Shown: positions 15,828-36,009, counted from the first letter of the stretch. The stretch: DNA of 64,000 nt from Thermodesulfobacteriota bacterium (GCA_963675595.2 CAXXLZ010000002.1:1120001-1184000), one strand, 5' to 3'. A program made the numbers and translations. The notes: generated by a model not told the origin, from the letters alone.

Positions 15828-15861
15828 GCCGCGGCAAGCGAAATTCGACGTTCGATTCGCT

Positions 15862-17163
15862 TTACTCTTCTTCCATCTCTTCAAGCTCGACGCCCAGCCG
15901 CTCCCACTGCTCGTCCCGAGCCTTTCGGCCGACCTCGATCTCTTGTTCGCTCCAGGGCTCTATCTCCAAGGCTTCTGAAACCAGCTCCCACAAGTACATG
16001 ACTTCGCACCCGAGGCTGTATTCCTTATCCAGGCTTTTCATGAGCTGGTCTCGGCAATTATGACACGGGGCGATGACCATGTGAGCCCCCGTTTCCTTGA
16101 TCTGTTCCGCCTTCTTCCGACCGTAAAAAATTCTCTCCTCGGAATAAGGCATGGCCCATGCGCCGCCTCCGGCGCCGCAACAAAGGTTGTTCTGTCGGTT
16201 GGTGGTGGTGTCCACGAAATCCGGACAACATTGCTGCAGAATCCACCGAGGTTCCTCGTAATAGCCGTGCCCGAAGGCTTTTTCGGACTTACGTCCGTAG
16301 TTGCACGGATCGTGATAGGTCACCCGTTCCGTGAAGAACTCAGGGTTTACTTTGATACGGCCTGTTTCAAGGTAATGTTTCATCAGATCGTGGACGGACC
16401 ATATCTTGAAATTCTTCATCTCTTCCTTAAACCACTTATTGAGACCTAACCTGGTCGCATAGTAGGCGTGGCCTCATTCGGGTAAAAGGAGGTTGGGGAT
16501 TTTGTAGCGCTGCATGTGCTCCACGATGCGGCCCACGATGGTTTTCATGGACTCGTCGTCGCCGGAGAACAGTCCCCAGTTCACGCCCTCCCAGTTCTCG
16601 CTCGTGGTCGTCCAATCTTCTTTGGCGGCATAGAATATCTTCCACCAAAATTTCATATCGTCGGGTTCGCCGAACGGTTCTTTGGAATTGATGGTTACCA
16701 ATATATTGGCGTTTTCCTTATCCACCGGAACGTAGAATCCCGGACAACATTCATCTTCCATTTCCTGGCCCATCTCGGCCAGCAGGAAGAGAAAGTCGTC
16801 TCTCGGAATACCAAGATTGTTCCCGCGCTCGATGCACATCATGGTACCTTTGTGGATGGGCCCCGGTACCTTGTCCCGTTCCCGCATGCCGCGGGCGGTG
16901 CGCATCATGGCCACAATTTCCACTCCGGCGGGGCAGGCGTACTCGCAACGGCCACAGAGAGTGCACACCCAGGGGAATCGGGAATCCACCAGTTCCTGAT
17001 CCAGACCGAGCGCCGCCATGCGCACCGCCTTTCTGGGGTCCATCCCGTCCACGCCGGTTACCGGGCAGCCGCTGGCGCAGGTCCCGCAGGTAAGGCACAC
17101 ATCGGCCCAAGCGGGATTCACCCTAAGCTTGCCCTTTTCTCGGCTTAGCGTAATTGCTTCCAT
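15862..17163 (-). CDS. Selenocysteine-containing CCG-domain Fe-S oxidoreductase (HdrD/GlpC/HmcF-like), 433 aa, Sec230
   Basis: Track ORFs 16474-17241 and 15862-16419 are in one frame, joined by TGA 16474-16476: LLLPE-U-GHAYY. The paralog at 1-1070 has VTECGHAFR. CxxCxxCxxxCP twice, HDPCN and CCGAGGG. Confidence 0.88.
16443..16456 (-). promoter_or_regulatory. SECIS-like hairpin
   Basis: GACC-AGGTTA-GGTC, 18-31 nt after the UGA. TGAGGCC can alternatively pair with GGTCTCA. Confidence 0.6.
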
Positions 17164-17394
17164 ACAAAATTTCTCCTCCATCATTTGTTGTGAACCAAAC
17201 CACAACTCCCGGCGATCCGAATCGGCGCCACGCAGGCGCAAACGACGGCGTTCTCCAAGAGTGCTTGCCGATCCTATTTTCTTCCAACATCAATGGTCTC
17301 TTCCGCAAAGAGCCCCACGCCCACTCCGGAGGCTTTCCTCACGGTCGATCCCCTCTCTTCCCCTCGTCGGTTCTCCTGCGGTGAATCCCCGAGT

Positions 17395-18771
17395 TCAGAA
17401 AACCACCCGCAAATTATACCGCTTAATCTTGTGTCCCAACGTTTTCCTGTTAATCCCCAAAATTCTCGCCGCCTCCTGCCGCTTTCCCTTGGTGTTTCTC
17501 AGTACAAACTGAATGTAGCGCTTTTCAAGTTCCTCCAGGGTATATTCGCCGTCGGAAAATACCTGAAACTCACCCTGTCGTTGGGTGATAAAACTCGGAA
17601 GATGCTCCGGTTGGATCGTATCCGTGTCCTCCAAGATCAAGATCCTCTCGATGGTATGCTCCAATTCCCGAACGTTACCCGGCCACGGATAGTCGCTCAA
17701 CAGCTTCATCGCCCGGCTCGACACTCCCTTGACCTGCCTGTCGCTCTTCAGATTGTGCTTTTCGATGAAATGGTTGACCAACAAGGGGATGTCGCCCGTA
17801 CGCTCTCTCAAAGGCGGAAGGTGAATGGGAACGACGCTCAGTCGATAGTACAGGTCTTCCCGAAACGTTCCCGCTTTGATGGCTTCCTTCAGGTCTCGGT
17901 TGCAGGAAGCGATAATCCTGATATCCAGCCGAATTCGCTTCTGGCTGCCGACCTTCATGAACTCCCGCTCTTGAATCACCCGCAGGAGTTTGGCCTGGAT
18001 GTTCAGGCTGAGATTGGTGATTTCGTCAAACAAAAAGGTGCCATGGTTCGCCAACTCGAATAGCCCATGCTTGGTCTGATGCGCTCCGGTGAAGGAGCCC
18101 TTCACATGCCCGAACAGCTCGCTTTCCAGCAGGGACTCCACCAAGGCGGAGCAATCCACGGGCACAAATTCATGATCCCGACGAGAACTCAATCGATGAA
18201 CCGCTCGAGCCGCAAGCTCCTTGCCGGTTCCGCTTTCCCCGGTGAGAAGCACCGTGCTGTCACTGGGCGCCGCTCTCCGTATTTTCGCGAAAACCCTCTT
18301 CATGGCGGGGCTTTCTCCGACCAGGGAATCGATCCCCTCCCCGCCGTCGGAATCGCTGTCCTGGACTGAAACAACAGCCGACTCGTTTTCGAGACTTTCC
18401 CGGGCCTTGCGCACAACCGACTCGAGTTCATCCAGGCGAAACGGTTTCACCAGGTAGTCCAGAGCCCCGTGCTTAACGCATTCCACGGCGCCCTCGATCG
18501 AGGGATGCCCGGTAATGATGATCACTGCGGTGTGGGGATACTCATTGCGTATGACCTTCAAGACGGCCATCCCGTCCATTTCGGGCATTCTGATATCCAA
18601 GAGCACGATCCCGAACGGCTCTTCGGACATCCTCTCCAGGGCCTCCGGACCGCTCTCCGCGGATTCCACGCGGTAGCCTTGTGAAACAAGTACCCTCGTG
18701 ATTCCCGTGCGGACCACGGGTTCATCGTCCACCACGAGGACCCGGTCTTTTAAGTCAAGCCTCTCCGACAA
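17395..18771 (-). CDS. Sigma54-dependent response regulator (NtrC family: REC-AAA+-HTH)
   Basis: VLVVDDE, LDIRMP, GESGTGKE, ELFGHVKGSFTGA, WPGNVRELE and a Fis-type HTH. Start uncertain (TTG 18771 chosen). Confidence 0.92.
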   Translation of the reverse strand: MSERLDLKDRVLVVDDEPVVRTGITRVLVSQGYRVESAESGPEALERMSEEPFGIVLLDIRMPEMDGMAVLKVIRNEYPHTAVIIITGHPSIEGAVECVKHGALDYLVKPFRLDELESVVRKARESLENESAVVSVQDSDSDGGEGIDSLVGESPAMKRVFAKIRRAAPSDSTVLLTGESGTGKELAARAVHRLSSRRDHEFVPVDCSALVESLLESELFGHVKGSFTGAHQTKHGLFELANHGTFLFDEITNLSLNIQAKLLRVIQEREFMKVGSQKRIRLDIRIIASCNRDLKEAIKAGTFREDLYYRLSVVPIHLPPLRERTGDIPLLVNHFIEKHNLKSDRQVKGVSSRAMKLLSDYPWPGNVRELEHTIERILILEDTDTIQPEHLPSFITQRQGEFQVFSDGEYTLEELEKRYIQFVLRNTKGKRQEAARILGINRKTLGHKIKRYNLRVVF

Positions 18772-20260
18772 GGCAGTCCTCTGTTTCCGGCACCACGGGG
18801 AGAAGAACCTTGAAAGTGGTCCCGGCACCTTTCCGGCTCTCCACCTCGATCGACCCTTGATGGGCCTCCACAATGCCCTTGACAATGGCGAGCCCCAGCC
18901 CGGACCCGATCACCTGACGCGTACTCGGATCTTTAACTCGATAGAACTTATCGAAAATCTTAGGAATCTCGGTTTCTTCAATACCGATCCCCGTGTCGCT
19001 CACCCGAATCTCCACGTAATTCCCATGAGGAATGATCTCTGCACGAACCTCCCCACCGTCGGGAGAATAGTTGATCGCGTTCGTGAGTAAATTGGTAAAT
19101 AGTTCCTCCATTCCTCTTCGATCGGCGCGGATCACTGTTGGAGCGGTAGGCTGTTCCAGTACCAGACGTATTCTCAGGCTCGTCGCCCTCGCATCCAATA
19201 GGCCCGTGACTTCGGCAATCACTTCATGCAGGTTGAGAGGCACCTGCTCCATGCGGCCATGACCCGCTTCGATTTTGGAGACGTCCAATAGATCGTTAAT
19301 CAATTCAATCAGCCCATCGATCTTGTCGTGGGCGCGCTCTATAAGATGACGTTGTTTTTCGGTCAATTCTCCGGCCAAACCATCCAATATGACTTTATGC
19401 TGCAATTTGATCGCCGTCAACGGTGATCTGAGCTCGTGTGAAACCATGTGCACGAAGTCGTTCTTCATCTCCTCAACTTCTTTAAAACTCGAAATGTCGT
19501 GAAAGACGGTGACCGTCCCCAGGACATGCTCATCCGGTCCGAAAAACGGAGCAGACAACGCCCTAAGCTGGGTTTTTCCTCTTGTAAGTTCTTGGGCGAT
19601 GCGACGGTCCGGGTCTTCACCGGCGTCTTGCAGCAGGCTCTCGATCGACTCTCTCAGAGCCGCATCGTCAAAGTAGTTCGACAAAGGTCCGGGCAGCGAA
19701 GCAGGATTGGACAAACCCAGATGCTGAGACAAGGCGGGATTGTACAACACCACTTCCATGTCCCGATTGGTGACCAGAACACCGTCGCCCATGCAATTAA
19801 TGATGGTTCTAAGCCGGCTTTGCTCCAAGGCCAGGGAATAAAGGTTCCGGGCCTGCTCCTCCTGAAGATCCCGGGCCTGCCGCTCCAGCACCTGCTTATC
19901 GAGGGCCCTGCGTACCACCAGAACCAGATGGTCGATGCGAAAAGGCTTGGTCACAAAATCATAGGCCCCTTGCTTCATGCACTCTACGGCATCAGCAACG
20001 GTTCCGTGACCGGTAATAATGATCACAGGCACATCGGGGTACCTCGTGCCCGTGATCTCAAGCACCTCCAGAGCACCCATGACCGGCATTTTCAGATCAC
20101 ACAAAACCACGTTCACCGGTTCCGTCTCCAACAAATCGAGTGCTTCCCGACCGTTGGCCGCCGTGGTCACCCTGAACCCTTCCGGCTCCAGGAATCGGAT
20201 ACACCCATCGCGGATCACTTTCTCGTCATCGACCACGAGCACGGTGTAGTTTTCATCCAT
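18755..20260 (-). CDS. REC-PAS-histidine kinase
   Basis: N-terminal receiver, then PAS, H-box SHELRSPL, NLLTNAINY, DTGIGI and GSGLGL. Confidence 0.92.
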   Translation of the reverse strand: MDENYTVLVVDDEKVIRDGCIRFLEPEGFRVTTAANGREALDLLETEPVNVVLCDLKMPVMGALEVLEITGTRYPDVPVIIITGHGTVADAVECMKQGAYDFVTKPFRIDHLVLVVRRALDKQVLERQARDLQEEQARNLYSLALEQSRLRTIINCMGDGVLVTNRDMEVVLYNPALSQHLGLSNPASLPGPLSNYFDDAALRESIESLLQDAGEDPDRRIAQELTRGKTQLRALSAPFFGPDEHVLGTVTVFHDISSFKEVEEMKNDFVHMVSHELRSPLTAIKLQHKVILDGLAGELTEKQRHLIERAHDKIDGLIELINDLLDVSKIEAGHGRMEQVPLNLHEVIAEVTGLLDARATSLRIRLVLEQPTAPTVIRADRRGMEELFTNLLTNAINYSPDGGEVRAEIIPHGNYVEIRVSDTGIGIEETEIPKIFDKFYRVKDPSTRQVIGSGLGLAIVKGIVEAHQGSIEVESRKGAGTTFKVLLPVVPETEDCLVGEA

Positions 20261-20421
20261 TGCTTTCCCTCACCACGTCATTTTTCTTCCTCGGCGTGCA
20301 ACATCGCCTTTCAAGGAATTCTCCGACGTTGATCAAGCTTCCCGCGGGAAATTTTCGAGCATCTAATGCACGCATGCGCGTCGTTTTGCGAAGCGCAACT
20401 CCAGCCGTCGCCCCCGCGTAT

Positions 20422-22731
20422 CTAACCATCCAGAAACGACTCCTGTTCAGGCCCTTCAAAAGGAAGGAAAATAACAAACGTGGTGCCCCCCTCCGGGGGA
20501 CAATGCACCTCGATCATCCCTCCATGTCTTTGGATGACGCCGTAAACGATGGACAACCCAAGGCCGGTCCCCTTGCCCGGGTCCTTGGTGGTGAAAAAAG
20601 GTTCGAATATTTTGTCCCGAATGCTTTCGGGGATGCCGCAACCCGTATCGGCGAACCATACGCGCACTCCGCCTTCGTCCTCTTCCTCGCGCGCGGTGAT
20701 TTTGATCCTCCCTTGACCGTCCATGGCATCGGCCGCGTTGAGGAGCAGGTTCATAAAAACCTGTTGAATTTCACCGGGATCGCCTAAAACCTGCCGCATT
20801 TCAGCCTGGTAATCCTCCGTGACCGCGATGTCGTGAAACAGGGCTTGGTGCCCCACCAACTCCACACACCGATGTATGATGTCGCCCACATCGAACAAGG
20901 CGCGCTGTCCCAAGGATTGTCTGCTGAACTCAAGGAGCCGGGTGACGATTTGTTTGCACCGAAGGGTCTGAGCAATAATTTCTTCGACGTCCGAACGGAT
21001 GGAAACCGCCGGACCAAGTTGTCCTTGAATAATTTCCGCATAAATCAGAATACCCGCCAAAGGATTGTTGATTTCATGAGCCACCCCGGCGGCAAGCTGT
21101 CCGAGAGAAGCGATCTTTTCGGCCTGCATGAGCTGAGCCTGAGTTTCCTCAAGCTTCTTTCTCATTCTCAAGGTTTCCCGCAAGTCGGAAAAGATGGCCA
21201 CAATCCCGAGTTCCTTGTCCCCTTCCTTGATCAGAGATGCGGAAAAATTTACGGGAACATCCTCACCGTTCTTGTTTCGAAAGGACATCTGGCTGGTGTT
21301 GAGTTTTCCCGGAGGGCCGAATTCCGCCCCCCGCAGCCGGTCAATCAGCTCCGACGCCGATGCCGTTGTGAAGACTCTGTCCAGCACGCCCGCATGACCG
21401 ATAACCTCTTCGCCTCGATAACCCAGTATCCGCTCGGCGCCTTCGTTATAGATAACGGGCACGCCGGAACGATCCACCACGACGATCCCGTCCACTGAAC
21501 TGTGAATGATATTGCTCAGGAAATTGTTTGCTTTTTCGAGCTCCCGCTCGATCTTTAGTCTGTTGGTAAGGTCTCTGAGATAGATGCAGGTCAGCGCCGA
21601 AGCGCCGAGGCGCGCGACGGCCATGCAGGCCTCGTAAACCCTGTATTCGTCGTTGGATGAATGCTGCTGATCCAAGATTCGACAGTACTGAACCCCCAAA
21701 GGAGGACTCTGGTCGAGCATCCGTTCCAGATCTTCGCCCATGGCGGGGTGGCGGGGTTCGAGCACTTCCCGCAGTTTCTTGCCCACCAAGTCCTCCTTGG
21801 CCTGGCCCACGATCTCCGCCATTCTGGAGTTTACGAAAAGGATCCTCCGTTCCTCATCCAGCATGGCGATCCCCTCCCGCGTCAGTTCGGTAATGAGATC
21901 GATCTTCTTCTGGGCCTCCACCAGGGGCGTGATGTCGCGTATCGCTTCAAAGCCGCCGATAACCCGGCCCGAGGGATCGGTGATGATCGAAGCGGAAACC
22001 ACCACGGGAACCTGCCGTCCGTGCTTGTCTCTCGCCACTCTCCTTACCTCGGAAATGGGCTGCTTGTGCTCCATCACCTGCCGAAGAATGCATTCACACG
22101 TCTGGCACTGTACCGTGTTCAGTACCTGGCCGCAGGTCATCTTTCCCACGACTTCCTGCCGCGAGTAACCCGTAAGCTTCTCCATGGGCTCGTTGATATG
22201 CGTCACCACCAGATCGGGAGCCACCGTGAAGAAGGGCGTGGGGAAGTGCTCCAAAATGCTCGACAGGGTGGCGGTCTGAAGCTGGGTGACCGGATGTGAA
22301 AGCAAGTCCGCCTGGAACTCGCGAAGCACCACAAAACATCCCCGCCCGAACCCCAAAGAGCTTCCAATGGGACTCGCGGTCACCGTGGTGGGCTTGGTTT
22401 TCCCGAACCGGTACTCAAGATTCAAAGGCACCCTTGAGAGGCTTTCGCCTCTCTCCAGGCACCGCTCGATCATGGCGTCCCCACTCTCCAGGCCTTTCAC
22501 TCCCCTGGACAACGGCCGACAGACGGGACACCGGTCCATCAGACGAAAGTCCGGGCCGAAGAGCGCTTGGGCGGAATCATTCAAGAACACCACCCGCTTC
22601 TGCTCATCAACGATCAAGATAGGATCGGGAAAATCACCGGCCAGGTCCGCCAACAACTCAGGCGATGCCGATTGGACCGATGTCCGGCCCCTCTCCCGGG
22701 CAATCGTCCGTTCGCTTTGTTGCCGGTCCAC
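20422..22731 (-). CDS. Cytoplasmic multi-PAS sensor histidine kinase
   Basis: Several PAS repeats, [14 protein letters not shown] and GTGLGL. No TM segment evident. Confidence 0.92.
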
Positions 22732-22782
22732 TCAGGCCCTCCCTTCAGGCCGGTCGGCGAGAATCCCGCCGCTCCGCCGCCT

Positions 22783-23874
22783 TCACGTTTCCTCTCTGGC
22801 CACTTCAACACGTGCTTCTCTCGTAGGTGAAGTGGGGTGAAACACCTGCTCTAAAATCGCAATGCCTCGCTTCAGCTGCGTTCTCGAAATGACCGCCGAC
22901 ATGGAGGAAACGGTACAGCTCAAGGCTTCGATGGATATTCCGTTCCCTTCCAGTGCACTCACCAGCGTGTTGGCGATCCCGTACCGGTCCCCGAAATGCG
23001 GCCCGTGGAGATAGACGGCGGCCATTCCGCCGGTTCGGTAAACGGCGGTCTTTTCCGTGAACGAGTCGAGGCATAGGGCCCTTTCGTCCAAACGCCCGCC
23101 GTTACGGTCCGTTTCACGCAGGCAGAAAGCCAAGTCCATGCTTCCGGACTTTCCGGGAGCGCCGGCAAGAAAAGCGATTTCTAGATTCATGTCCTGCCAA
23201 CCGCGTACGGCCGAGGCCAGAAGGCTGAGATCGCCGGCGCCCGACGAGACTTCCCATAAATCCAGATGGTCCCGGTATTCGATCCAATAAATCCGCGCGA
23301 TCTTCTCCTGAAAGGAGGCGATTACACTGCGGAAGTGCTCATCCGGACCAACAAGGCTGTCGAGAAAATCCGCCGGAGAAACGAACGACGCAAACCGAAA
23401 CCGGCCGAACAGAGCCTGCACGGCACGTTCTTTTTGCGTGATGGGGATGATCGTAGAAACCGCGGAAGGAGAGCTTGCAAACCCGTAAAGGGTCAACCCC
23501 GCTTCGGCGAAGGCGCCGATGAATGCACCGATTATACTTGGGCGCCCGTGGTGAGGAAACACGGAGAAAATGCCTATTTTGGACACCGTTCCCATCCCGC
23601 CGCCGGGAACTCCCAACAACGCGGCATGGGCGACCCCGTCGGAACGCGCGGCACAGAACAAGGTACGGCATCCCGTCCCCGGCCGATCCGGGACGGACGT
23701 CAGAAGAGTCAGGTTGATCTTGTTCAGGGCCAGAGGAGAACAAACCCCCTCGCACAAGGGCGAAACATCCTCCACGCATGAACACGACACGCAGTCGTTG
23801 TCCTCGAGGACTTTCAGACCCCGAACTTCGATCAATCCCGACGTTTCACGCAGGCGCCCATCGGGCGCCCGCAA
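22783..23874 (-). CDS. Stand-alone ACT-domain protein (aspartokinase C-terminal-like)
   Basis: GPHFGDRYGIANTLVSALEGNGISIEALSCTVSSMSAVI plus a second ACT-like repeat (FPHHGRPSIIG..ASSPSAVSTII). No kinase domain. Confidence 0.65.
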   Translation of the reverse strand: MRAPDGRLRETSGLIEVRGLKVLEDNDCVSCSCVEDVSPLCEGVCSPLALNKINLTLLTSVPDRPGTGCRTLFCAARSDGVAHAALLGVPGGGMGTVSKIGIFSVFPHHGRPSIIGAFIGAFAEAGLTLYGFASSPSAVSTIIPITQKERAVQALFGRFRFASFVSPADFLDSLVGPDEHFRSVIASFQEKIARIYWIEYRDHLDLWEVSSGAGDLSLLASAVRGWQDMNLEIAFLAGAPGKSGSMDLAFCLRETDRNGGRLDERALCLDSFTEKTAVYRTGGMAAVYLHGPHFGDRYGIANTLVSALEGNGISIEALSCTVSSMSAVISRTQLKRGIAILEQVFHPTSPTREARVEVAREET

Positions 23875-23883
23875 GTTTGTCCT

Positions 23884-24273
23884 TCATTGCTGAATAAGCC
23901 GTTCCACCGCCTCCACAAGAGTGTTGGAATCCACGGGTTTGGAAATATAGTCGTCCGCCTCCATGGACAGCCCTTGGGCGTGAGTGTAGCTCGTGGAAGT
24001 CACCGCGTCGCCCACCGCGGTCAAAAGCACAATGGGGATGTCCTGAGTCCAGTTGTTGGACTTCAGCTCCGCACAAAGCTCATATCCGTTCTTGCGGGGC
24101 ATCATCACGTCCAGAACCAGCACGTCGGGACGCCTCTTCTTGATGGCCTGCTCGGCCTCAATTCCGTCATAAGCCTTGCCCACCTCATATCCCTTGCCTT
24201 CGAAAACCATGGAAACGGTTTCCACCAAATCGGGATCATCATCGACGATCAGGATATATTTCTTGTCGGACAT
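23884..24273 (-). CDS. Single-domain response regulator
   Basis: ILIVDDD, LDVMMP, LLTA and YISKP. Confidence 0.92.
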   Translation of the reverse strand: MSDKKYILIVDDDPDLVETVSMVFEGKGYEVGKAYDGIEAEQAIKKRRPDVLVLDVMMPRKNGYELCAELKSNNWTQDIPIVLLTAVGDAVTSTSYTHAQGLSMEADDYISKPVDSNTLVEAVERLIQQ

Positions 24274-24375
24274 TGTTCTTCCCTCCTTTTGCAGGATGGC
24301 GTTTTGGAGTCCCCATTTACAACAAATCTCTTAAATCATTTCGCAGTTGTCAACGTCGCTTCCATCCGGGTGTTC

Positions 24376-26419: not shown

Positions 26420-26430
26420 GTTCGGACTCC

Positions 26431-29400
26431 TTAAGAAAATGCGCTGATACCGGCCCTGATCTGCCCGTCCTCATAGTGGGCCAGTTGGATGACTTTGGCG
26501 GGGCACTCCGACGCACATACCCCGCACCCCTGACACAAGGCCTCATTGATTTCCGAAACGTTGTCCTCGTTGATCTTCGGAACCCCGAAGGGACAACTTC
26601 GCACACACACCAAGCAGGCGGCGCAGCGGCTCGTGTCCACTTTGGCCACCACCCCGCTGATCGTCTGGTGGGTATCCGCCAAAAACGCGCCGGCTCTTGC
26701 CGATGCCGCCAACGCCTGCGCGATGGTTTCGCTGATCAACTTGGGACTATGAGCCGTACCGCACAGGAAGACTCCTTCGGAACTGAAGTCCACGGGCCGA
26801 AGTTTGGCGTGCGCTTCAATGAAGAATCCGTAGGCGTTGCGCGGGACCTTCAGCAGGGTCGCGAGTTCCTCGGTGTCGGACGCCAACGTGGCCGCGCTCA
26901 GAACCACCGCGTCCACCGCCATTTTGATGGGACGGTTCAGAACGTGGTCTATGAACGTCACGCTCAGCTCGCCGTCGGCGTTCTCAACCACGGGCTCCTT
27001 GTCCAGGCTGAAACGGCTGAACAGCACGCCCTTTTTCCGGGCTTCCCGATAATAGTCCTCCAGCAAACCGTAAGTTCGCATGTCGCGATAGAGGATCACG
27101 ACCTCCGTTTCCGGATTCATCTCCTTGAGCTGCAACGCGTGCTTCACCGCGCCCTGGCAACAGATGCGGCTGCAGTTGGGATTCTCCTCGTTTCTGGAGC
27201 CCACGCACTGAATCATGACCACACGCTTCCAGTTCGACGTGGTTCCCGGTTCTTCGTGCATCCGATCGCCCAGTTCAAGCTGGGTCATGACCCCTTCGTG
27301 TTCTCCGTAGAGGAACTCCTTGGGTTTGTACTCGAAAGCCCCGGTGGCCACGATGGCCGCCCCGTGGTTGATCTTCCTCTCGTACATACCCGGGCCCACC
27401 AACACCTCCGTGGTGAAGTTGCCCTTGTATCCGCTGAATCCCACGATCAAAGCCTCGATCAGCACCTGAATCTTTTCATGGGACCGGACCCTTTCAATGA
27501 GTTCGTCCAGGTAGCGGTTCACGTCCAGACCGTCGATGGTGTGATACAGCCGTCGAGCCATGCCGCCCAGAGCCTTTTCCTTCTCGATGACGACGGCTTC
27601 GAATCCCTGCTGAGCCAGATTGAGGGCGGCGTTGAGTCCCGCGATACCGCCGCCGACCACCAGGGCTCTCTGGTTGATTTCCAGGGGTTTTTCCACCAGG
27701 GGATTGAGCAGACCGGCCCGCGCCACGGCCATGCGAACCAGATCCTTCGCCTTCTCGGTGGCCCGGCGGGATTCCTTCATATGCACCCAGGAATCCTGAT
27801 TACGAATGTTGGCCATATCGAACAAATACTTGTTCAGACCGGCATCAATGAGGGTTTCCCGAAACAACGGCTCATGGGTCAAGGGTGTACAGGCCGCCAC
27901 CACCACTCGGTTGATGTCGTTTTCCCGGATGACTTTGGCCATTTTCACCTGAGTGTCCTGGGAGCAAGTGTACAGGTTATCCTCGACGTGGACCACGTTG
28001 GGCAGGGATCGCGCATATTCCCGCACTTCGGGCACGTTGACGATGCCCCCGATATTGATCCCGCAATTGCAGACGAACACGCCCACCCGCGGCGGTCCTT
28101 CCATGACCTCCTTACGTTCGGGCGGCGTCACCTTCACCTCGGTCCGCGTCCAACGAACATCACCCAAAACCGCGCTGCAGGCCGCCGCTCCGGCGGAAGC
28201 CTCCATAACCGACTGTGGAATATCCTTAGGCCCCTGGAAAGTCCCACATACGTAGATTCCGGGGCGGGACGTGCTGACCGGAGACGAGGGCAGCGTTTTG
28301 GCAAAATGGTGCGTATTCAATTCGATGCCAAGCCGGTCCGCCAATTCAGTCGCGCCTTTGCTCACCTCAAAACCCGTGGACAGCACCACCATATCGAACT
28401 CTTCCCGCCTGGGCTCTCCGTTTTCGTCCACGTAACTGATGGCGAGTTCCGCCTCGCCCGTCGGGTCGATGCTGTGCACCCGACAGCGAATAAAGCGGAC
28501 TCCGTGCTCGTTTCTCGCCCGATTGTAGTACTGCTCGAATTCCTTTCCGTAGGTCCGCATATCCATATAGAAGATCGCGGTATCCAGGTCTCCGTGCGCA
28601 TGCTCCTTGGCGATGACCGCTTCCTTGATGGCATACATGCAGCACACGGCCGAGCAGTAGGAATGGTCGCAACGGTTCATATCTCTCGAACCCACGCATT
28701 GCAGCCAGGCGATCTTTTTGGGCTCGTCCCGATCGTAGGGCCGCATGAGGTGTCCCTTGTACGGACCGGAGGCACTCAAAATGCGCTCAAACTCGAGACT
28801 GGTGACCACATTGGGCAGCCGCGTGTATTTGTAGGTCTCGAATCGGCTCGGATCGAACACTTCGTTGCCTAAAGTCAGCAGCACCGCACCCACTTCCACT
28901 TCCCGTTCCACTCGAGTCTGCTCATACTCCACGGCCCGGGCCAGGCAAACCTTTTCGCAGAGCCCGCAGCCGATGCAGGCGTCCTTGTCGATGGAATAAG
29001 CCAGCGGAACCGCTTGAGGGTATTTGATATAGGAGGCTTCTCGCCGGTCCAGCCCACGGTTGAAAAAGTTTACCGCGCTTACCGGACATGCCTTCTTGCA
29101 GTCGCCGCAAGCCGTGCATTTCACCGGATCGATGTATCGCGGACGGCTCTCGAGGACCGCCTTGAAGTTCCCTACGTCGCCTTCCAGGGACTTGACTTCC
29201 GTGTTCGTGAGCACGTCGATGTTCAGGTGACGGCCCACTTCCACCAGCTTCGGGGATATGATGCACATGGCGCAGTCGTTGGTCGGAAAAGTCTTGTCCA
29301 ACTGTGACATGACCCCGCCGATGGAGGGAGAGCTTTCCGCCAGGTAAACGCGATAGCCCGAGTTGGCCAGATCCAGGGAAGCCTGCATCCCGGCGACCCC

Positions 29401-29454
29401 CGCGCCCACGACCAATACCGAGCCGATCCTTCCGTTATTGCTTTCATTCGCCAT
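26431..29454 (-). CDS. hdrA: Heterodisulfide reductase subunit A-like flavo-Fe-S protein (internally duplicated, 1007 aa)
   Basis: Two GxGxxG FAD motifs, DKTFPTNDCAMC, two CVGSR..CSxxCC motifs and ferredoxin-type CxxCxxCxxxC domains. Confidence 0.93.
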   Translation of the reverse strand: MANESNNGRIGSVLVVGAGVAGMQASLDLANSGYRVYLAESSPSIGGVMSQLDKTFPTNDCAMCIISPKLVEVGRHLNIDVLTNTEVKSLEGDVGNFKAVLESRPRYIDPVKCTACGDCKKACPVSAVNFFNRGLDRREASYIKYPQAVPLAYSIDKDACIGCGLCEKVCLARAVEYEQTRVEREVEVGAVLLTLGNEVFDPSRFETYKYTRLPNVVTSLEFERILSASGPYKGHLMRPYDRDEPKKIAWLQCVGSRDMNRCDHSYCSAVCCMYAIKEAVIAKEHAHGDLDTAIFYMDMRTYGKEFEQYYNRARNEHGVRFIRCRVHSIDPTGEAELAISYVDENGEPRREEFDMVVLSTGFEVSKGATELADRLGIELNTHHFAKTLPSSPVSTSRPGIYVCGTFQGPKDIPQSVMEASAGAAACSAVLGDVRWTRTEVKVTPPERKEVMEGPPRVGVFVCNCGINIGGIVNVPEVREYARSLPNVVHVEDNLYTCSQDTQVKMAKVIRENDINRVVVAACTPLTHEPLFRETLIDAGLNKYLFDMANIRNQDSWVHMKESRRATEKAKDLVRMAVARAGLLNPLVEKPLEINQRALVVGGGIAGLNAALNLAQQGFEAVVIEKEKALGGMARRLYHTIDGLDVNRYLDELIERVRSHEKIQVLIEALIVGFSGYKGNFTTEVLVGPGMYERKINHGAAIVATGAFEYKPKEFLYGEHEGVMTQLELGDRMHEEPGTTSNWKRVVMIQCVGSRNEENPNCSRICCQGAVKHALQLKEMNPETEVVILYRDMRTYGLLEDYYREARKKGVLFSRFSLDKEPVVENADGELSVTFIDHVLNRPIKMAVDAVVLSAATLASDTEELATLLKVPRNAYGFFIEAHAKLRPVDFSSEGVFLCGTAHSPKLISETIAQALAASARAGAFLADTHQTISGVVAKVDTSRCAACLVCVRSCPFGVPKINEDNVSEINEALCQGCGVCASECPAKVIQLAHYEDGQIRAGISAFS

Positions 29455-29536
29455 GGAGTGTCCTCTCCGAAGGCCCGCCGCCGTTCCCTTCCCGCCGAAA
29501 GAAGCCGGAGGCCGAGCCGATTGAGTCCAAAGTGAG

Positions 29537-30292
29537 TTAGGCGGTCAGCATGAATCTGGGACTGTGCCCGTCGTAGCTTTTAAGGTCCGCCAGCCCGGTT
29601 CTTTCCAGATCGTTCAGCCGAAGCGACACGCAATAGATCGGCAATCCCGTTTCGGCGGACATTTCACGAACCGTTTTCGGGCCCTTGGCCAGAACCTCGT
29701 AAATGAGGGCCCTCTGGTACTCCTCCTCCGCACAGGCCTTGAAAAACTCCGCGTATCGGGATGGATCGATCCGCTCATGATAAACGTTATCGCGCTCGGT
29801 GACGTGTCGACCCGTTCCCGTGAGCCACCGCAGTTTGGGAGCGGTCAATGCGCGTTCCAGCGCGGGCAGTGCCACGGGGTACGCATCCGGATCAAAGGGT
29901 CCCAGGTCCCGGATCACTCCGGTCAGTTCGGTGATGAAATCGGCGAAAATTTGACCTTCGGCGGCACTGACCCATCGGAGTTGCACCCGGTCTTTTCCGA
30001 TGCCCGAAAAATCCAGTAGGTGGGTAACGAGGCTAATCCTGCGCTGCGCATATACATTACCTTCCAGGTAATGGCAGTCCCCGATGTGTCACCCGAAGAC
30101 GAAAACCCCGTCGAATCCGCTTTTCAATCCTTCCATAATGTGGAGCGGGTCAACCCGCCCGGAACACATGGTGCGGATCACCCGGATGCTTGGTGGATAC
30201 TGAAACCGGGAAACGCCGGCCAGGTCCGCGCCCGCATAAGCGCACCAGTTGCACAAAAAAGCCAGAATCTTAGGTTCGAAGAGCTCGCTCAT
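29537..30292 (-). CDS. MvhD-like selenoprotein (Sec68) with C-terminal winged-HTH-like extension, 251 aa
   Basis: Track ORFs 30089-30292 and 29537-29986 are in one frame across TGA 30089-30091: FVFG-U-HIGDCHYLEGN (canonical GC..GDCHY). C-terminus LIYEVLAKGPKTVREMSAETGLPIYCVSLRLNDLERTGL. Confidence 0.88.
30055..30073 (-). promoter_or_regulatory. SECIS-like hairpin
   Basis: Perfect 8-bp stem CATTACCT-GGA-AGGTAATG, 16-34 nt after the UGA. Confidence 0.75.
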
Positions 30293-30303
30293 GATATCTC
30301 CCT

Positions 30304-33300
30304 TTAAGCCTCCTGCACGGCATTGCGGCCGCCGCCGGCATGAATGGCGGCGGAGATCTGACTGTCACGGAAGCCGATCATGTCTATGGCCCTTTGAGGA
30401 CAGGCCGCGGAACAGATTCCACATCCCTTGCACGAGGCGGAGATGTTCTCCGCCCGAAAACCCTTGCCCTGCACCGCGATCAGGTGAATGGCGCTGAACG
30501 GGCAGGAAGCCTCGCACAGCCCGCACCCGATACACAGCTCCTGGTTCACGGAAGACACCAGGGGATCCACCTCGATCTCCCCACGGCTCAACACTTCCGC
30601 CGCACGGGAAGCCGCTGCTTGGGCCTGCGCGATGGACTCCTCAACGGGCTTGGGATAATGGGCCAGACCGGCCACGAATACACCGTCCGTGGCAAAATCC
30701 ACGGGACGGAGTTTCATATGGGCTTCCAGAAAGAAGCCGTCCCCATTCAGCGGCACTTTGAACATCTGAGCCAGACCCTGCACGTCTCTGGGGACAATGG
30801 CGGAAGCCAAATTCAGGAAATCCACCGGCAGGGTGACTTCCCTTCCCAACACATGGTCCTTCACCGTAATTTCGAGCTTGGGTTTCCCCTGTCCGCTCGC
30901 AACCTTCACCTTGGGTTTGTTTTCCAGGTCGAACCGCAGGAACAAGACTCCCAGCTCCCTGGCCTTGCGATACAGCTCCTCCCGTTCTCCAAAGGTGCGC
31001 AAGTCCCGATACAGCACAAACACCCTCAAATCGGGCTTGCGCGTTTTGAGATCGATGGCTTGTTGCACCGAAGCGGTACAGCAAATCTTTGAACAATAGG
31101 GCCGTTGGGGCTCCCTGGACCCGACACATTGAATAAAGGCAACGGCTTCGGCCTCGTTCAACAGGGCCGGATCGGCGGCGAGTCGCTCTTCCAGCTCATG
31201 TCCTCGGGTCACCAGATCGCTTTGCCCGTAAAGGTATTCATCCGGCACGAAGGACTCGGCGCCGGTGGCCAGCACGGCCACGCCGTGTTCGATTTCCCGG
31301 TCTTGGCCTCCGCTCTCGAGCACCGTCTTGAAGTTCCCAACAAACCCGGCGACATGGCTTATTCGGGTTCCGGTGAACACTTCGATCTTGTCATGCCCGT
31401 GAATCTTGGCCTTCAGGTCCTCCATGTAGCTTTGCACATCCTCGCCTTTCCAGGTCTTCTTGAGCTTGAGGGCATGCCCCCCCAGCTCGCTTCCCTGTTC
31501 CACGAGGTAGGTATGAATGCCTTGGGTGGCCAGATTCAGTGCCGTGTTCATGCCCGCAACGCCGCCTCCCACCACCAGAGCGTTTTGACTCAATCCCACG
31601 GTCATCCGGCCCACCGGCTCTAGAAGCGCCGCCTTGGCAACGGCCATGCGCACCAAGTCTTTGGCCTTTTCCGTGGCCTTTTCCGGCTCGTTTTGGTGAA
31701 CCCAGGAATCCTGATCCCGGATGTTGGCCAATTCGAATAGATGGGGATTGAGGCCCGCCTCCTTCAGAGTTTCCTGAAAGAGCGGCTCATGGGTCCTCGG
31801 CGTGCATGCGGCCACCACCACCCGATTGAGCTTATGCTCATGAATCGCTTCACGGATCAGGGCTTGGGTGTCTTGGCTGCACGTGAACATGGTGTTGGAA
31901 GCGTAGGCCACGTGAGCGAGGTTCTTGGCGTAATCACGAACTTCCTCGGGGTTGATCACGCTGGCGATGTTGATCCCGCAGTGGCATACGAATACACCGA
32001 TACGGGGTTCTTCTCCGGCCACGGAAGCTTCTATGGGATAGGTCTTCTCCTTGATCAAAGTGTTCCGCGCGGATCCCAGCAGAGCGGCGGAAGCGGCCGA
32101 AGCGGCCGAAGCTTCCATGACGGAGTATGGAATATCCTTGGGGCCGGAGAATGCTCCGCAGACGAAAATCCCGGGACGTGAAGAAGCCACGGGGGAGAAA
32201 CAGCTCCCCTCGGCGAACCCGTCCGCCGTCAACGCCACCCCCAACCGCTCGGCCAAGTCGCGAACCTCACGGGGAATCTCGAGCCCCACGGAAAGAACCA
32301 CCATGTCGAAGACTTCGGCAATCACTTCGCCTTCTTCGGTCACATATTCCAGTTTGAGCTCTCCCGCGCCCCCGGGAACTTCCTCAATGCTGTGCACCCG
32401 ATTCCGGATGAACCGGACCCCGGACTCTTTTTCGGCCCGAACGTAGTAACGTTCAAACTCCTTGCCGTACGTACGCATGTCCATGAAGAAGACGGCCGTG
32501 TCCAGGTCCTCCCCCGCGTGTTCTTTCGCAATGACCGCCTCTTTGATGGCGTACATGCAACACACCCCGGAGCAATAGCCGTGTCCCATCTGCACGTCAC
32601 GGGAGCCGATGCATTGCAGCCAAGCGATCTTTTTCGGTTTGGCCTTGTCGGACGGCCTCACCAAATGTCCTTCGTATGGGCCCGAGGCACTGAGAATCCG
32701 CTCAAATTCGGGACTGGTCACCACATTGGGAAAACGACCATACCCGTATCGATGGTAGGGAGTGGGATCGAAGGCTTTGAAACCCGGCGAGAGGATCACG
32801 GAACCCACGTTGATGTGGTGTTCTTTAGGCTCCTGGCTGAAATCCACGGCCCCGGCGGGACAAAATTTCTCGCAGGCCCGGCACTTGCCCTTTTTGAAAT
32901 AGATGCAGTGGTCCGGATCGATGGCGTACTTCAGGGGAACGGCCTGGGGATACTCGACATACGCCGCCTTGCGCTGACTCAGGCCCTGATTGAAGGTGTC
33001 CTCCACCTTCTTGGGGCATTTCTCGGCGCAGATTCCACAGGCGATGCACTTCTCCATATTCACGTACCGGGGCTTTTCCGCCACCGTGACCGTGAAGTCT
33101 CCCGCCTCTCCCTCGATGGATCGAACATCCGCCATGGTCATCAGTTGGATGTTCAGATGTCGCCCGGCTTCAACCAGCTTGGGCGAAAGAATGCACATGG
33201 AACAGTCATTGGTGGGGAACGTCTTGTCCAACTGGGCCATCACGCCCCCGATGGCGGACGATTTTTCCACCAAGTACACGTAGTATCCTGAATTGGCCAA

Positions 33301-33411
33301 ATCCAGCGCCGCTTGGATCCCGGCGACCCCGCCTCCCACCACCATGACGGAGCCCACGGGGGTTTTTCCCGCACCGCCGTTCCCGCTGCCTGGGGATTGT
33401 CCGTTTGTCAT
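30304..33411 (-). CDS. hdrA: Heterodisulfide reductase subunit A-like flavo-Fe-S protein (internally duplicated, 1035 aa)
   Basis: Paralog of 26431-29454: VVGGGVAG twice, DKTFPTNDCSMC, CIGSR/CVGSR and terminal 2x4Fe-4S motifs. Confidence 0.93.
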   Translation of the reverse strand: MTNGQSPGSGNGGAGKTPVGSVMVVGGGVAGIQAALDLANSGYYVYLVEKSSAIGGVMAQLDKTFPTNDCSMCILSPKLVEAGRHLNIQLMTMADVRSIEGEAGDFTVTVAEKPRYVNMEKCIACGICAEKCPKKVEDTFNQGLSQRKAAYVEYPQAVPLKYAIDPDHCIYFKKGKCRACEKFCPAGAVDFSQEPKEHHINVGSVILSPGFKAFDPTPYHRYGYGRFPNVVTSPEFERILSASGPYEGHLVRPSDKAKPKKIAWLQCIGSRDVQMGHGYCSGVCCMYAIKEAVIAKEHAGEDLDTAVFFMDMRTYGKEFERYYVRAEKESGVRFIRNRVHSIEEVPGGAGELKLEYVTEEGEVIAEVFDMVVLSVGLEIPREVRDLAERLGVALTADGFAEGSCFSPVASSRPGIFVCGAFSGPKDIPYSVMEASAASAASAALLGSARNTLIKEKTYPIEASVAGEEPRIGVFVCHCGINIASVINPEEVRDYAKNLAHVAYASNTMFTCSQDTQALIREAIHEHKLNRVVVAACTPRTHEPLFQETLKEAGLNPHLFELANIRDQDSWVHQNEPEKATEKAKDLVRMAVAKAALLEPVGRMTVGLSQNALVVGGGVAGMNTALNLATQGIHTYLVEQGSELGGHALKLKKTWKGEDVQSYMEDLKAKIHGHDKIEVFTGTRISHVAGFVGNFKTVLESGGQDREIEHGVAVLATGAESFVPDEYLYGQSDLVTRGHELEERLAADPALLNEAEAVAFIQCVGSREPQRPYCSKICCTASVQQAIDLKTRKPDLRVFVLYRDLRTFGEREELYRKARELGVLFLRFDLENKPKVKVASGQGKPKLEITVKDHVLGREVTLPVDFLNLASAIVPRDVQGLAQMFKVPLNGDGFFLEAHMKLRPVDFATDGVFVAGLAHYPKPVEESIAQAQAAASRAAEVLSRGEIEVDPLVSSVNQELCIGCGLCEASCPFSAIHLIAVQGKGFRAENISASCKGCGICSAACPQRAIDMIGFRDSQISAAIHAGGGRNAVQEA

Positions 33412-33466
33412 GTTATCCCTCGCTTTGATCCGGTTTGCTGGTTCCGATCCCCTGGGGGAAAATCCG

Positions 33467-34342
33467 TCATATGCCCGCCGCCGCCAGGACCGAAGGTAAT
33501 TTCTCCTCCCACCCGATGGTGGAAATCAGGACTCCCGCGGCTCCTTCCTCTTTGAAGGCTCGAATCAATTCGCCCGATATATGAATGCACTCCCGGGTTC
33601 TCTCCGGAGACTTCTGGATTCGGCCGATGATCTCTTCAGGGACACTTACGTGAGGCAGGTTGCGGTCGATGTATCGAGCCATTCCGACGGACTTGAGCAG
33701 GAGCACCGTGGGGAATATTTTCCCCTTGCGACCTTCCATCTTTTTCATCAGTCCACTCAATACCGATGGATCGAACACCGGTGGGGTTACGAAGAATTCC
33801 GCCCCGAGCTCGGCCTTCTTGTCGAGATTTTCCAGCTCAAGGTCCAACGCTCCCCCGCTCAAGCCCGCGTTCATTGTTGAACCCACCAGAAATCGTGGAG
33901 TTCCCTGGAGGTCCACGCCCCCCAAGTCTCGGCCCGAAGCCAGGGTCCCGATGGAGGAAAGCAGCTCGAACAAATCCAGGTCGTTCACCGGACGGGCCTT
34001 GGGATGATCTCCGTAGCTTGGATCCTCCCCGGTCACCGCCATGATATTGGTCACCCCCAAAGCGGCTCCGGCCAGCAGGTCCGCTTGAAGAGCCAGACGG
34101 TTCCGATCCCGGCAACAGACCTGCATCACCGTCTCGAATCCCCTGCTCTGGAGTAACACCGAACCGCCCAGAGAGCTCATGCGCATGACCGCATTGCTCA
34201 TCTCCGGCACCACGAAGGCGTCCACCTTCCGTTTCACTCCGGCTGCGTGCGCCGCCATCAACGATCCATCGGCGCCTTTGGGCGGTTCCATTTCCGCGAG
34301 AACGGCGAACTCCCCGGCGTTCAGTCTCTTTTGTAACTGCAT
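33467..34342 (-). CDS. Second, divergent MetF-family protein
   Basis: AEMEPPKG, CRDRNRLALQADLL and GDHP. Has TGED where the other MetF has TGDH. Confidence 0.85.
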   Translation of the reverse strand: MQLQKRLNAGEFAVLAEMEPPKGADGSLMAAHAAGVKRKVDAFVVPEMSNAVMRMSSLGGSVLLQSRGFETVMQVCCRDRNRLALQADLLAGAALGVTNIMAVTGEDPSYGDHPKARPVNDLDLFELLSSIGTLASGRDLGGVDLQGTPRFLVGSTMNAGLSGGALDLELENLDKKAELGAEFFVTPPVFDPSVLSGLMKKMEGRKGKIFPTVLLLKSVGMARYIDRNLPHVSVPEEIIGRIQKSPERTRECIHISGELIRAFKEEGAAGVLISTIGWEEKLPSVLAAAGI

Positions 34343-34359
34343 CCGATCTTCCTCCCGCG

Positions 34360-34737
34360 CTATTGGGACGAGCGCACCAAAGCGTTGGAAATAGCGAGCA
34401 TCAACTCATCCATGCCGAACGATTTTACGTGATAGTAGAAGATGCCCTTTTGCCTGATGCAACTCTCAAGTTCAGGGTTGTTTTCATCGGCGGTCACGAT
34501 GATGGGCAGCTTCTTGTGCAGCCCTTTAATGATGGATATGGCCTCGTATCCCAATCCTTCCGCCAACCCGGCGTCCATGACCAACACGTTGATCTTCTCA
34601 CTCTGCAGCGTGACGAGGAGGTCCTTGAGGTTGTTTACCTTAATGAGTTGGTATCCGGTCTCCGAAACCCACGGATTCAATCCCGCAGCCAACTCTCCGG
34701 CAGTTTCCGCGATCAGAAGCGTACCCATTCGTTCCAT
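34360..34737 (-). CDS. Atypical stand-alone receiver-domain protein
   Basis: LLIAE, VLVMDAG, IIVTA and YYHVKS. First gene after the sigma54 promoter. Confidence 0.75.
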   Translation of the reverse strand: MERMGTLLIAETAGELAAGLNPWVSETGYQLIKVNNLKDLLVTLQSEKINVLVMDAGLAEGLGYEAISIIKGLHKKLPIIVTADENNPELESCIRQKGIFYYHVKSFGMDELMLAISNALVRSSQ

Positions 34738-34810
34738 CGTCACCTTACCCTGGGGCCGAGTCAGGAGGTCTGATGCCCTGCGAGGCCGATTCCCCACGGC
34801 CCTTCGAAAG

Positions 34811-34826
34811 TGCAACTACCGTGCCC
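34811..34826 (-). promoter_or_regulatory. sigma54 promoter of the hdr/mvh/met cluster
   Basis: GGGCAC-GGTAG-TTGCA, with an IHF-like AATCAGTAGGTTA just upstream. 17-bp boxes at 34904-34920 and 34974-34990. Confidence 0.75.
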
Positions 34827-35165
34827 ATGACTTGCCACATGGTAACCTACTGATTTCGTAATGCTTTATTAATATTTCCGCTTGTAACTATGTGATACAC
34901 GCCTGGGGCGCTTTTTCCGGTAATCTCTTGGAGTAAACCATAACTATCTAATTAAATGATACTTTTTGCTAAACGGGTAATTATACCCCAACTGTTACCT
35001 CTTTACGCGGCGTACAGGCTCGGAAACATCCTCGGCCAACGCCGCCGAACGCCGAGCGCTCTCCAATTGACCGAACCTCCCGCGTCGGCTATTTTGCTTG
35101 GCAGGCTTCCAGGCTGATGGAACGGCAAAATTGATCGCATAACGGCAACGGCGGTTGGAGAGACG

Positions 35166-35981: not shown

Positions 35982-36009
35982 GAAAAACGGATTCATTCAC
36001 AGGGTCGCC

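Follow-up and report, generated by a model that had tools for sequence, protein, structure and literature searches.

An Hdr-type methylene-tetrahydrofolate reductase module without HdrBC, probably with its own sigma54/NtrC signalling circuit, in a Thermodesulfobacteriota bacterium

The 64,000-nucleotide stretch of Thermodesulfobacteriota bacterium DNA analysed here (GCA_963675595.2, CAXXLZ010000002.1:1120001-1184000; hereafter the window) contains a cluster of 14 co-oriented genes on the minus strand, spanning positions 15862-34737, that probably constitutes an HdrBC-less Hdr-type methylene-tetrahydrofolate (THF) reductase module with its own sigma54/NtrC signalling circuit. The enzyme, a variant without HdrBC that is typical of the phylum, belongs to a known enzyme type whose mechanism is unsolved and is not a new system, and the pairing of reductase genes with signalling genes recurs across the phylum. 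Specific to the window is a rearranged, GltD-less form with a double HdrA-MvhD set, to which the regulators and a CCG selenoprotein are appended. The gene order and co-orientation had been put forward in an original prediction made from the sequence, and they were borne out by the open reading frame (ORF) lists and translations, Pfam confirming every domain call.

The redox part of the cluster comprises, in gene order, MetF' (33467-34342; a divergent MTHFR-family paralog, Pfam MTHFR 81 bits), HdrA1 (30304-33411; 1035 aa, Pfam and NCBIfam HdrA2/HdrA models), MvhD1 (29537-30292; FlpD 169 bits), HdrA2 (26431-29454; 1007 aa, Pfam and alignment to solved HdrA chains), MvhD2 (25967-26419; FlpD 170 bits, VhuD model 172 bits), MetV (25302-25970; Pfam DUF5981, MTHFR C-terminal, 127.5 bits), and MetF, the catalytic MTHFR subunit (24376-25305; Pfam MTHFR 128 bits). 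Both HdrAs have a two-flavin layout without a GltD insert, both MvhDs contain selenocysteine (Sec), and MvhD1 has a C-terminal extension of 120 residues with a predicted winged helix. This part is preceded by an atypical single-domain receiver, REC1 (34360-34737; Pfam Response_reg 43.8 bits), and followed by REC2, a single-domain receiver of canonical type that has a conserved insertion (23884-24273; Response_reg 95.6 bits); a stand-alone protein with four ACT units, 4xACT, which is a putative small-molecule sensor (22783-23835; Pfam ACT_7/ACT_9 and an AlphaFold2 model); a PAS(x4)-HisKA-HATPase sensor kinase (20422-22731; Pfam); a receiver-gated REC-PAS-HisKA-HATPase kinase (18755-20260; Pfam); and an NtrC-type regulator composed of a receiver, a sigma54 AAA+ domain with GSFTGA and a Fis-type helix-turn-helix, HTH_8 (17395-18771; Sigma54_activat 228 bits). 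The last gene codes for an HdrD/DsrK/HmcF-like Fer4+CCG iron-sulfur protein with Sec, here called the CCG protein (15862-17184; Pfam CCG and Fer4_8). The gaps from REC1 to the second kinase are, in gene order, 17, 55, 11, 82, 11, -4, -4, 102, 9, 51, and 161 nt; ATGA overlaps flank MetV on both sides (with MvhD2 and with MetF), and the gap between REC2 and the ACT gene becomes 48 nt instead of 9 with the TTG start at 23835, which is the start that fits the relatives. The regulator's likely TTG start gives a 17-nt overlap with the second kinase. The fourteenth gene had been predicted to stand apart after about 230 bp; it is indeed separate, the distance between the NtrC-type regulator and the CCG gene being 210 nt.

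By homology and synteny, MetV and MetF form the catalytic core of the module, MvhD (of the [2Fe-2S] type) and the large HdrAs are its conserved partners, and MetF' always opens it. On top of this we infer electron bifurcation, the redox partners and a ligand for the 4xACT protein. Comparison loci fetched from relatives' genomes are designated by L-numbers, and 112 of them were chosen through the cluster itself: 12 class-level loci selected by matches to the ACT protein, the best 80 of at least 594 related stretches obtained by scanning species genomes with MetF' as bait, and the 20 best loci from a phylum-wide sample of 300 genomes in which MetF' orthologs were called at E<=1e-60. Eight further loci were fetched around CCG orthologs. 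The order MetF'-HdrA-MvhD-MetV-MetF-REC2-ACT-kinase-kinase was found in all 12 class-level loci, the ACT gene being detected by tblastn in 11 of them and by a HMMER/looser search in the twelfth. Since this set had been picked by a signalling gene, the synteny test was repeated with MetF' as bait. A MetF'-type match was present in 48 of the best 80 stretches, 30 of these showed MetF downstream, and 28 had at least 400 bp after MetF; in 25 of these 28 (exceptions L074, L078, and L106) a REC2-like gene starts 52-429 bp after MetF, and it is followed by ACT in seven loci, by a CCG protein in eight, and by kinases or an NtrC-type regulator in ten. The signalling genes, on whose linkage to hdr and met genes in relatives the original prediction had made itself depend, are thus syntenic with them in both the class-level and the MetF'-bait sets.

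In the phylum-wide sample, MetF' orthologs occurred in 88 of the 300 genomes. The whole order REC1-MetF'-HdrA-MvhD(Sec)-MetV-MetF-REC2-ACT-kinase-kinase-NtrC was recovered in four of the 20 best loci (L144, L146, L147, and L149, all from one family), whose proteins are 57-79% identical to those of the window except for ACT (35-38%), and L148 and L151 agree with this order until their contigs end. REC1 adjoins MetF' in L046, L047, L048, L058, L059, L068, and L088 as well as in 11 of these 20 best loci. The exact 14-gene order of the window was seen in none of the 112 cluster-chosen loci, nor in the eight loci fetched around CCG orthologs. Three features that had been singled out as unusual proved to be the norm in the phylum, as the count of MetF' genomes illustrates: that hdrBC is lacking, that there is a second MetF paralog, and that receiver, ACT and kinase genes are embedded in the cluster; the double HdrA-MvhD pair, likewise called unusual, is a minority form among the relatives. 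Spacing between MetF' and MetF in the 30 loci is about 4.2 kb in five, where the HdrA has about 1000 aa; in 22 it is 5.6-6.0 kb, consistent with a GltD-bearing HdrA (verified only in L144), L088 having a CCG gene there instead; and it is 8.0-8.9 kb in two (L059 and L080), which have two HdrA-MvhD pairs as does the window (8.2 kb). The context of the last locus, L106, is unrelated. Double pairs also occur in L157 and in the genome of L048/L145/L137, in the latter with a GltD insert in HdrA1, and L060 and L081 carry a free-standing divergent unit, HdrA1-MvhD1-HdrA2-MvhD2-CCG(Sec)-MetV, beside an ordinary module. The double pair with the MvhD-winged-helix protein and without the GltD insert is the rarer variant.

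The proteins of the window cluster are consistently closer to those of a family listed only as 'same phylum' than to those of same-family or same-order genomes: identities are, for example, 63-68% versus 47-51% for MetF' and 64-68% versus 39-42% for the second kinase, and 72-75% for NtrC to the former family. This closer match outside the bacterium's own family and order suggests that the whole module may have been transferred laterally.

Within the redox part, HdrA2 aligned with solved methanogen HdrA chains in three pieces, its E223 and K277 being the counterparts of E356 and K409 of 5odc_A. In an internal alignment, the N-terminal thioredoxin reductase (TrxR)-like domain of both HdrA1 and HdrA2 carries the E/K 'bifurcation' signature and has a ferredoxin domain inserted in it; the C-terminal TrxR-like domains are devoid of the inserted ferredoxin domain and have G/K (HdrA2) and E/Q (HdrA1) at the signature positions. 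Pfam gave no Fer4_20/GltD-type match, and hence no GltD-type NAD(P)H module, in either HdrA of the window; the close relative L144 has a 1472-aa HdrA with such an insert (Fer4_20 plus a Pyr_redox_2/NAD-binding block). Neither hdrB nor hdrC is among the 14 gene products, and an HdrB-family search of the genome returned in this region a single 23-bit match, inside the CCG gene. The CCG protein scored best against the NCBIfam models HmcF (206 bits), TmcB (179 bits), and DsrK (147 bits), all far below cut-off, and therefore it was regarded as a soluble HdrD/DsrK-like protein. HdrB-like genes sit elsewhere in the genome, one of them beside another MetV locus. Two extra MetV loci were noted: HdrB-like-HdrA-MvhD-MetV at C1:676925-682569, with no MetF seen and Moorella-like in having HdrB, and HdrA-MvhD-MetV-MetF at C2:1742756-1747792, whose MetF is 68% identical to that of the window and which is devoid of MetF' and signalling genes.

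The AlphaFold2 model of MvhD1 displayed an H-H-H-beta-beta arrangement at residues 177-249 with a predicted local distance difference test score (pLDDT) of at least 90. Foldseek retrieved the MvhD of 5odc and also the winged helices CzrA/SmtB/SqrR at weak E-values (3e-3 to 2e-2), and Pfam winged-helix matches to the extension were sub-threshold only (E 0.003-0.12), in two of four orthologs. On this model, the C-terminus of MvhD1 appears to be an ArsR/SmtB-like winged helix. MvhD1 with its C-terminal extension is kept in L059, L060, L080, L145, and L157.

The two single-domain receivers differ in how far they conserve their functional residues. REC1 has AE in place of the expected DD pair, and its conserved Lys is lost in two of five relatives (L046/L058). 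The phospho-acceptor residues of REC2 (D11-13, D55, T85, and K112) are kept in all 15 aligned sequences, and this receiver carries an invariant insertion adjoining its signalling face. Pfam ACT_7/ACT_9 matched only the last repeat of the ACT protein; its AlphaFold2 model (pLDDT 81, predicted template modelling score 0.85) comprises four beta-alpha-beta-beta-alpha-beta units, and the top Foldseek hit was 3l76, a Synechocystis aspartate kinase with four ACT units (TMq 0.75), followed by the arginine sensor CASTOR1/2. Only distant relatives of this protein were found, in 26 of 60 relatives searched; the motif GPHFGDR.G is invariant. A search of the cluster's signalling proteins for an Hpt domain (Pfam, E<=0.01) was negative, so that these proteins would form a kinase cascade and not a canonical His-Asp-His-Asp phosphorelay, and the phosphorelay originally proposed was not upheld. 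The N-terminal PAS domains of the first kinase contain Cys-rich stretches, CPVCRPL and C-x11-C-x2-C-x-C, which might bind a metal or an Fe-S cluster.

A sigma54-type promoter, GGGCACGGTAGTTGCA (-24 GG/-12 GC; 34826-34811, minus strand), is located in an AT-rich dip, at a distance of 73 nt upstream from the ATG of REC1. Scanning both strands of the 64-kb window with the sigma54 consensus (GG/GC core, <=2 mismatches) yielded two matches, of which GGGCACGGTAGTTGCA alone has a single mismatch. The window promoter aligns base for base with an element upstream of REC1 in a Desulfobacca metagenome-assembled genome, and a GGCAC/GGCAT-N-TTGC-type element is present 66-106 nt upstream of REC1 in 10 of the 11 REC1 loci among the 20 best. 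In the 48 MetF' loci, 50 consensus matches were counted on both strands, and 18 of them are on the coding strand in the 1 kb that precedes MetF'. The window and L046 also have in common a block GTAAAGARGTAAC...TTAC, located some 170 nt upstream of the -24 element; this conserved block, at 34973-35006 (minus strand; GTAAAGAGGTAAC...TTACC) in an AT-rich region (GC 0.405), is a candidate enhancer (upstream activating sequence) for the NtrC-type activator. The genome encodes rpoN. NtrC-type regulators aligned over their full length occupy three arrangements relative to the cluster: upstream and co-oriented (for example L048, L059, and L145), upstream and divergent (for example L049 and L061-L066), and downstream, as in the window and in L144-L149. 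Orthologs at 72-75% identity follow the second kinase in L144, L146, L147, and L149. The promoter that had been predicted from the window is thus supported by its conserved position and by the adjacent regulators. Position and conservation suggest that sigma54 control is conserved where a regulator adjoins the cluster, and that the element is presumably active there. Scanning 15400-35300 for sigma70 promoters and terminators gave sites fewer than or equal to those in shuffled sequence, and upstream of the promoter a search for repeats revealed no inverted repeats and only two weak direct-repeat families. A divergent PAS-sigma54 activator gene (36266-38197, plus strand) was examined as a possible further regulator acting on the cluster and rejected, since it has no counterpart beside the clusters of relatives, its sole match, an unrelated one, being in L076. 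Between the promoter and this gene there is about 1 kb of coding-like DNA (34995-35996, minus strand; 35166-35981, plus strand) with no Pfam match on either strand.

We propose that transcription would start at the sigma54 promoter upstream of REC1 and would be activated by the cluster's own NtrC-type response regulator, the phosphorylation of which would be set by two kinases, the PAS kinase and the second, receiver-gated one. This kinase cascade would be modulated by REC2, by REC1 as a pseudo-receiver and by the putatively ligand-binding 4xACT protein, in a logic comparable to that of PII-NtrB-NtrC. In the NtrB-NtrC-PII system, the activator of a -24/-12 promoter has a REC-AAA+-HTH layout, and its state is controlled by a kinase. 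The cluster resembles it by analogy, since it has kinases, an NtrC-type activator and a -24/-12 promoter, and a putatively ligand-binding 4xACT protein is encoded with the kinases; unlike it, the window has two kinases in series (one of them receiver-gated), two extra single-domain receivers, an ACT protein as the sensor in place of PII, and a redox enzyme operon as the target. The enzyme complex itself would couple the methylene/methyl-THF couple to ferredoxin at the inserted ferredoxin domain of HdrA, working by flavin-based bifurcation or confurcation, and the CCG protein may couple it to a thiol/disulfide-type (DsrC-like) partner, standing in for HdrBC; a thiol partner of the DsrC type is suggested by the presence of an HdrD/DsrK-like selenoprotein where HdrBC would be expected.

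Several observations weigh against this proposal. No NAD(P)H site is evident in the HdrA-MvhD variant of the window, and additional promoters could be situated in the internal gaps of 82-161 nt. In the 12 class-level loci, MetF' is not preceded by a sigma54 promoter and no gene for a DNA-binding regulator adjoins the cluster, so the conserved REC-ACT-kinase core need not act through transcription. The CCG gene lies behind the 210-nt gap and its counterpart is convergent in one close relative (L137), and in the four full-order loci it is absent after NtrC or represented by a fragment only (a 69-aa match in L147 and a match at the locus edge in L149). Finally, simple RNA folding of the 67 nt after each in-frame TGA, in search of selenocysteine insertion (SECIS) hairpins, gave structures no better than shuffled sequences (z = -0.51, +0.92, and -0.51).

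The class-level loci bear on an alternative that we consider unlikely, namely that the REC2-ACT-kinase genes act mainly post-translationally: phosphorylated REC2, with or without the ACT protein, would bind the reductase and gate its activity or direction, with the NtrC/sigma54 part added later in some lineages. REC2, ACT and the two kinases, which are the oldest part conserved in the circuit, have no obvious transcriptional output, and the most widely conserved components, REC2 and the two kinases, have no DNA-binding output. The conservation of REC2 (53-79% identity) matches that of MetF (62-79% among relatives), the invariant insertion of REC2 lies next to its signalling face, and each MetF paralog is paired with a receiver gene (REC1-MetF' and MetF-REC2), all of which speaks for this alternative. 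Single-domain receivers are, however, also common as phosphate sinks or shuttles within transcriptional circuits, and an NtrC-type regulator is adjacent in many lineages. An extended form of the alternative, to which we give little credence, holds that phosphorylated REC2, together with REC1 on MetF', would gate or reverse the MetF/MetF'-HdrA electron flow according to a metabolite read by 4xACT, while the MvhD-winged-helix protein would report the redox state to DNA. If true, such a phospho-switch acting directly on a bifurcating enzyme would be the first protein-level two-component control of a bifurcating oxidoreductase.

The place of the CCG protein in the module raises a second alternative, which seems to us somewhat unlikely: it would be not a subunit but a separately transcribed general DsrC/thiol-disulfide oxidoreductase that is merely nearby. 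This would agree with the gap preceding its gene, with the opposite orientation in L137, with the lack of a full CCG gene after NtrC in the four full-order loci, and with the presence of several CCG paralogs per genome in other contexts. Against it, at least 14 of the 80 loci have a CCG gene inside an HdrA-MvhD-MetV(F) cluster (L049, L050, L061, L064, L065, L066, L073, L079, L060, L081, L085, L088, L114, and L116). The CCG gene comes directly after MetF-REC in eight loci, lies between MvhD2 and MetV in L060/L081, and precedes HdrA in L085, L088, L114, and L116, and in L137 the convergent Sec-containing ortholog is located right after ACT. A further link is an MvhD-CCG pair at another place in the genome of the window. 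The HdrD-like selenoprotein neighbour that had been predicted thus recurs beside such clusters in several arrangements, and the link is a recurrent neighbourhood and not a fixed operon position. At the start of the window (3-1810, minus strand), a CCG/Fer4 paralog, which shares 32% identity with the CCG protein of the cluster, runs off the edge and adjoins an unassigned 221-aa ORF; homologs of both follow MetV/MetF in an HdrA-MvhD-MetVF locus of another genome (L138).

Three selenoproteins had been predicted in the cluster, and this part of the prediction held. In-frame TGA codons occur in MvhD1 (30089-30091, context G-U-HIGDCHY), in MvhD2 (26372-26374, context CSY-U-AY), and in the CCG gene (16474-16476, context PE-U-GHAY), all at Cys positions. 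Codons at these sites were counted from local alignments against all fetched loci. The MvhD1 site has 9 stop and 55 Cys codons, the stops including the MvhD1-type orthologs of L048, L059, L060, L080, and L081; the MvhD2 site has 33 stop, 30 Cys and 2 other codons; and the CCG site has 24 stop, 5 Cys and 1 Ser codons, with CCG orthologs at 62-73% identity having TGA at the same site. The genome encodes tRNA-Sec, SelB (404 bits) and SelA (621 bits), both proteins scoring above cut-off. That the three TGAs would instead be true stops of split or decayed genes is very improbable: the hairpins downstream of them, being no more stable than those of shuffled sequence, are in its favour, but the frame stays open past each TGA and homology is full-length before and after it, the relatives alternate between TGA and Cys exactly at these sites, and the machinery for Sec incorporation (tRNA-Sec, SelA and SelB) is encoded. 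In L059, L060, L080, L081, and L157, HdrA1 and HdrA2 have an in-frame stop at FPTNDCxM-U, where both HdrAs of the window have Cys, so that those clusters would have four or five selenoproteins. ACT homologs with an in-frame stop, mostly TGA, were also seen in several relatives (including L034, L035, L039, L042, L043, and L092), and these might be further selenoproteins or split genes.

MetF' is present in a single copy in the genome and is about 32% identical to MetF. Judged by the ortholog alignment alone, it keeps most family-invariant residues, including the Glu of the N-terminal AEM-E-xPKG stretch; in a weak profile alignment (36 bits), it varies between E, Q and D at the residue under the Asp of the RGD motif in human MTHFR chains. 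We take these positions to correspond to the Glu and Asp that act in catalysis in E. coli MetF. Searching the PDB with MetV and MetF' by phmmer produced no match. The genome also encodes AcsB/CdhC and DsrA, which fits a sulfate reducer using the acetyl-CoA pathway. An alternative that we judge improbable is that the module serves another C1 route (methyl groups from demethylation, or the methionine/S-adenosylmethionine cycle) and not this pathway, with MetF' acting on a different pterin or as a non-catalytic scaffold. The two further MetV loci would allow the paralogs to divide labour, the ACT sensor suggests an amino-acid signal, and both the low identity of MetF' to MetF and its variation at the RGD Asp position (in the weak profile alignment) point the same way; on the other hand, acsB/cdhC and dsrA are present and MetF' retains the N-terminal Glu and most family-invariant residues. 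The closest relatives, moreover, belong to Desulfobacca/Desulfobaccales, and the MetF of D. acetoxidans appears in an excerpt of PMC6085437 among putatively bifurcating Met homologs, which also speaks against another C1 route.

The Hdr-type (type IV) methylene-THF reductase, MetVF-HdrCBA-MvhD, is known from Moorella thermoacetica and Sporomusa ovata; according to part of PMC9430772, the 101-kDa HdrA of S. ovata has a two-flavin layout with one bifurcation signature, and that of Moorella carries a GltD-type NAD(P)H module. In the window, as in these systems, metV-metF adjoin mvhD and a large multi-flavin hdrA (here in two pairs). Set beside the same excerpt (PMC9430772), the window HdrA resembles that of S. 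ovata in having one TrxR-like domain with the E/K signature, and the GltD-like NAD(P)H insert of Moorella is found in the HdrA of the window's closest relatives, not in the window's own. Unlike both, the window cluster is devoid of hdrB/hdrC and has a fused HdrD/DsrK-like Sec protein instead; it also has the MetF' paralog, two HdrA-MvhD pairs, Sec in MvhD and in the CCG protein, an N-terminal TrxR-like domain that retains the inserted ferredoxin domain, and a dedicated REC/ACT/kinase/NtrC circuit with a sigma54 promoter. Among sulfate reducers, excerpts of PMC2702500 describe HdrA/HdrL-MvhD loci and Sec-containing Hdr proteins in Desulfobacterium autotrophicum HRM2, and excerpts of PMC10553843 describe HdrA genes adjoining metF and Wood-Ljungdahl genes in syntrophic sulfate-reducing bacteria. 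As far as the excerpts go, the locus and its relatives have the following in common with these: genomes contain many HdrA-type paralogs with an mvhD gene after each of them, Sec occurs in HdrA, MvhD and HdrD, HdrA is found fused to glutamate synthase, and metF stands beside Hdr genes (PMC2702500, PMC10553843). The same excerpts contain no MetF' paralog, receiver/ACT/kinase genes, sigma54 promoter, MvhD-winged-helix protein or double pair, and the supplementary figures of these papers may show the neighbourhoods (PMC2702500, PMC10553843). The terminal protein resembles the DsrK/HmcF/TmcB/HdrD family in its Fer4 dicluster plus CCG domain and differs from it in scoring below the family cut-offs, in having no membrane partner gene alongside, and in its Sec at PE-U-GHAY. 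Another known system likewise has an HdrA homolog with two flavin sites, for which tandem bifurcation has been put forward; its catalytic module and its substrate are different. In full-text searches of the literature, neither the linkage to receiver/ACT/kinase/NtrC genes nor the double pair nor the fusion of MvhD to a winged helix was found described, although supplementary figures may show such neighbourhoods.

In acetogens, as well as in sulfate reducers whose acetyl-CoA pathway operates in the reverse direction, the methylene-THF reductase step is energetically critical. To our knowledge, it is not known with which electron partners the Hdr-type methylene-THF reductases work, even in Moorella and Sporomusa. 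The locus and its relatives are natural experiments in this respect: the NAD(P)H (GltD) insert is present in some forms and absent from others, the number of HdrA-MvhD pairs is one or two, and there are forms in which an HdrD/DsrK-like selenoprotein replaces HdrBC. The NtrC/sigma54 circuit, which is conserved and includes an ACT sensor, offers a way to find out which conditions and which metabolite turn on the enzyme, and the promoter/regulator pair of the window could serve for controlled expression.

Other features were observed around the cluster. An ORF at 14806-15669 (minus strand) has no Pfam match. Just downstream of the cluster, the region 8119-13759 (minus strand) contains two methylmalonyl-CoA mutase-family genes and MeaB, and a cobalamin riboswitch (89 bits; 53428-53607, minus strand) immediately precedes a gene for a TonB-dependent receptor (51274-53058, minus strand).

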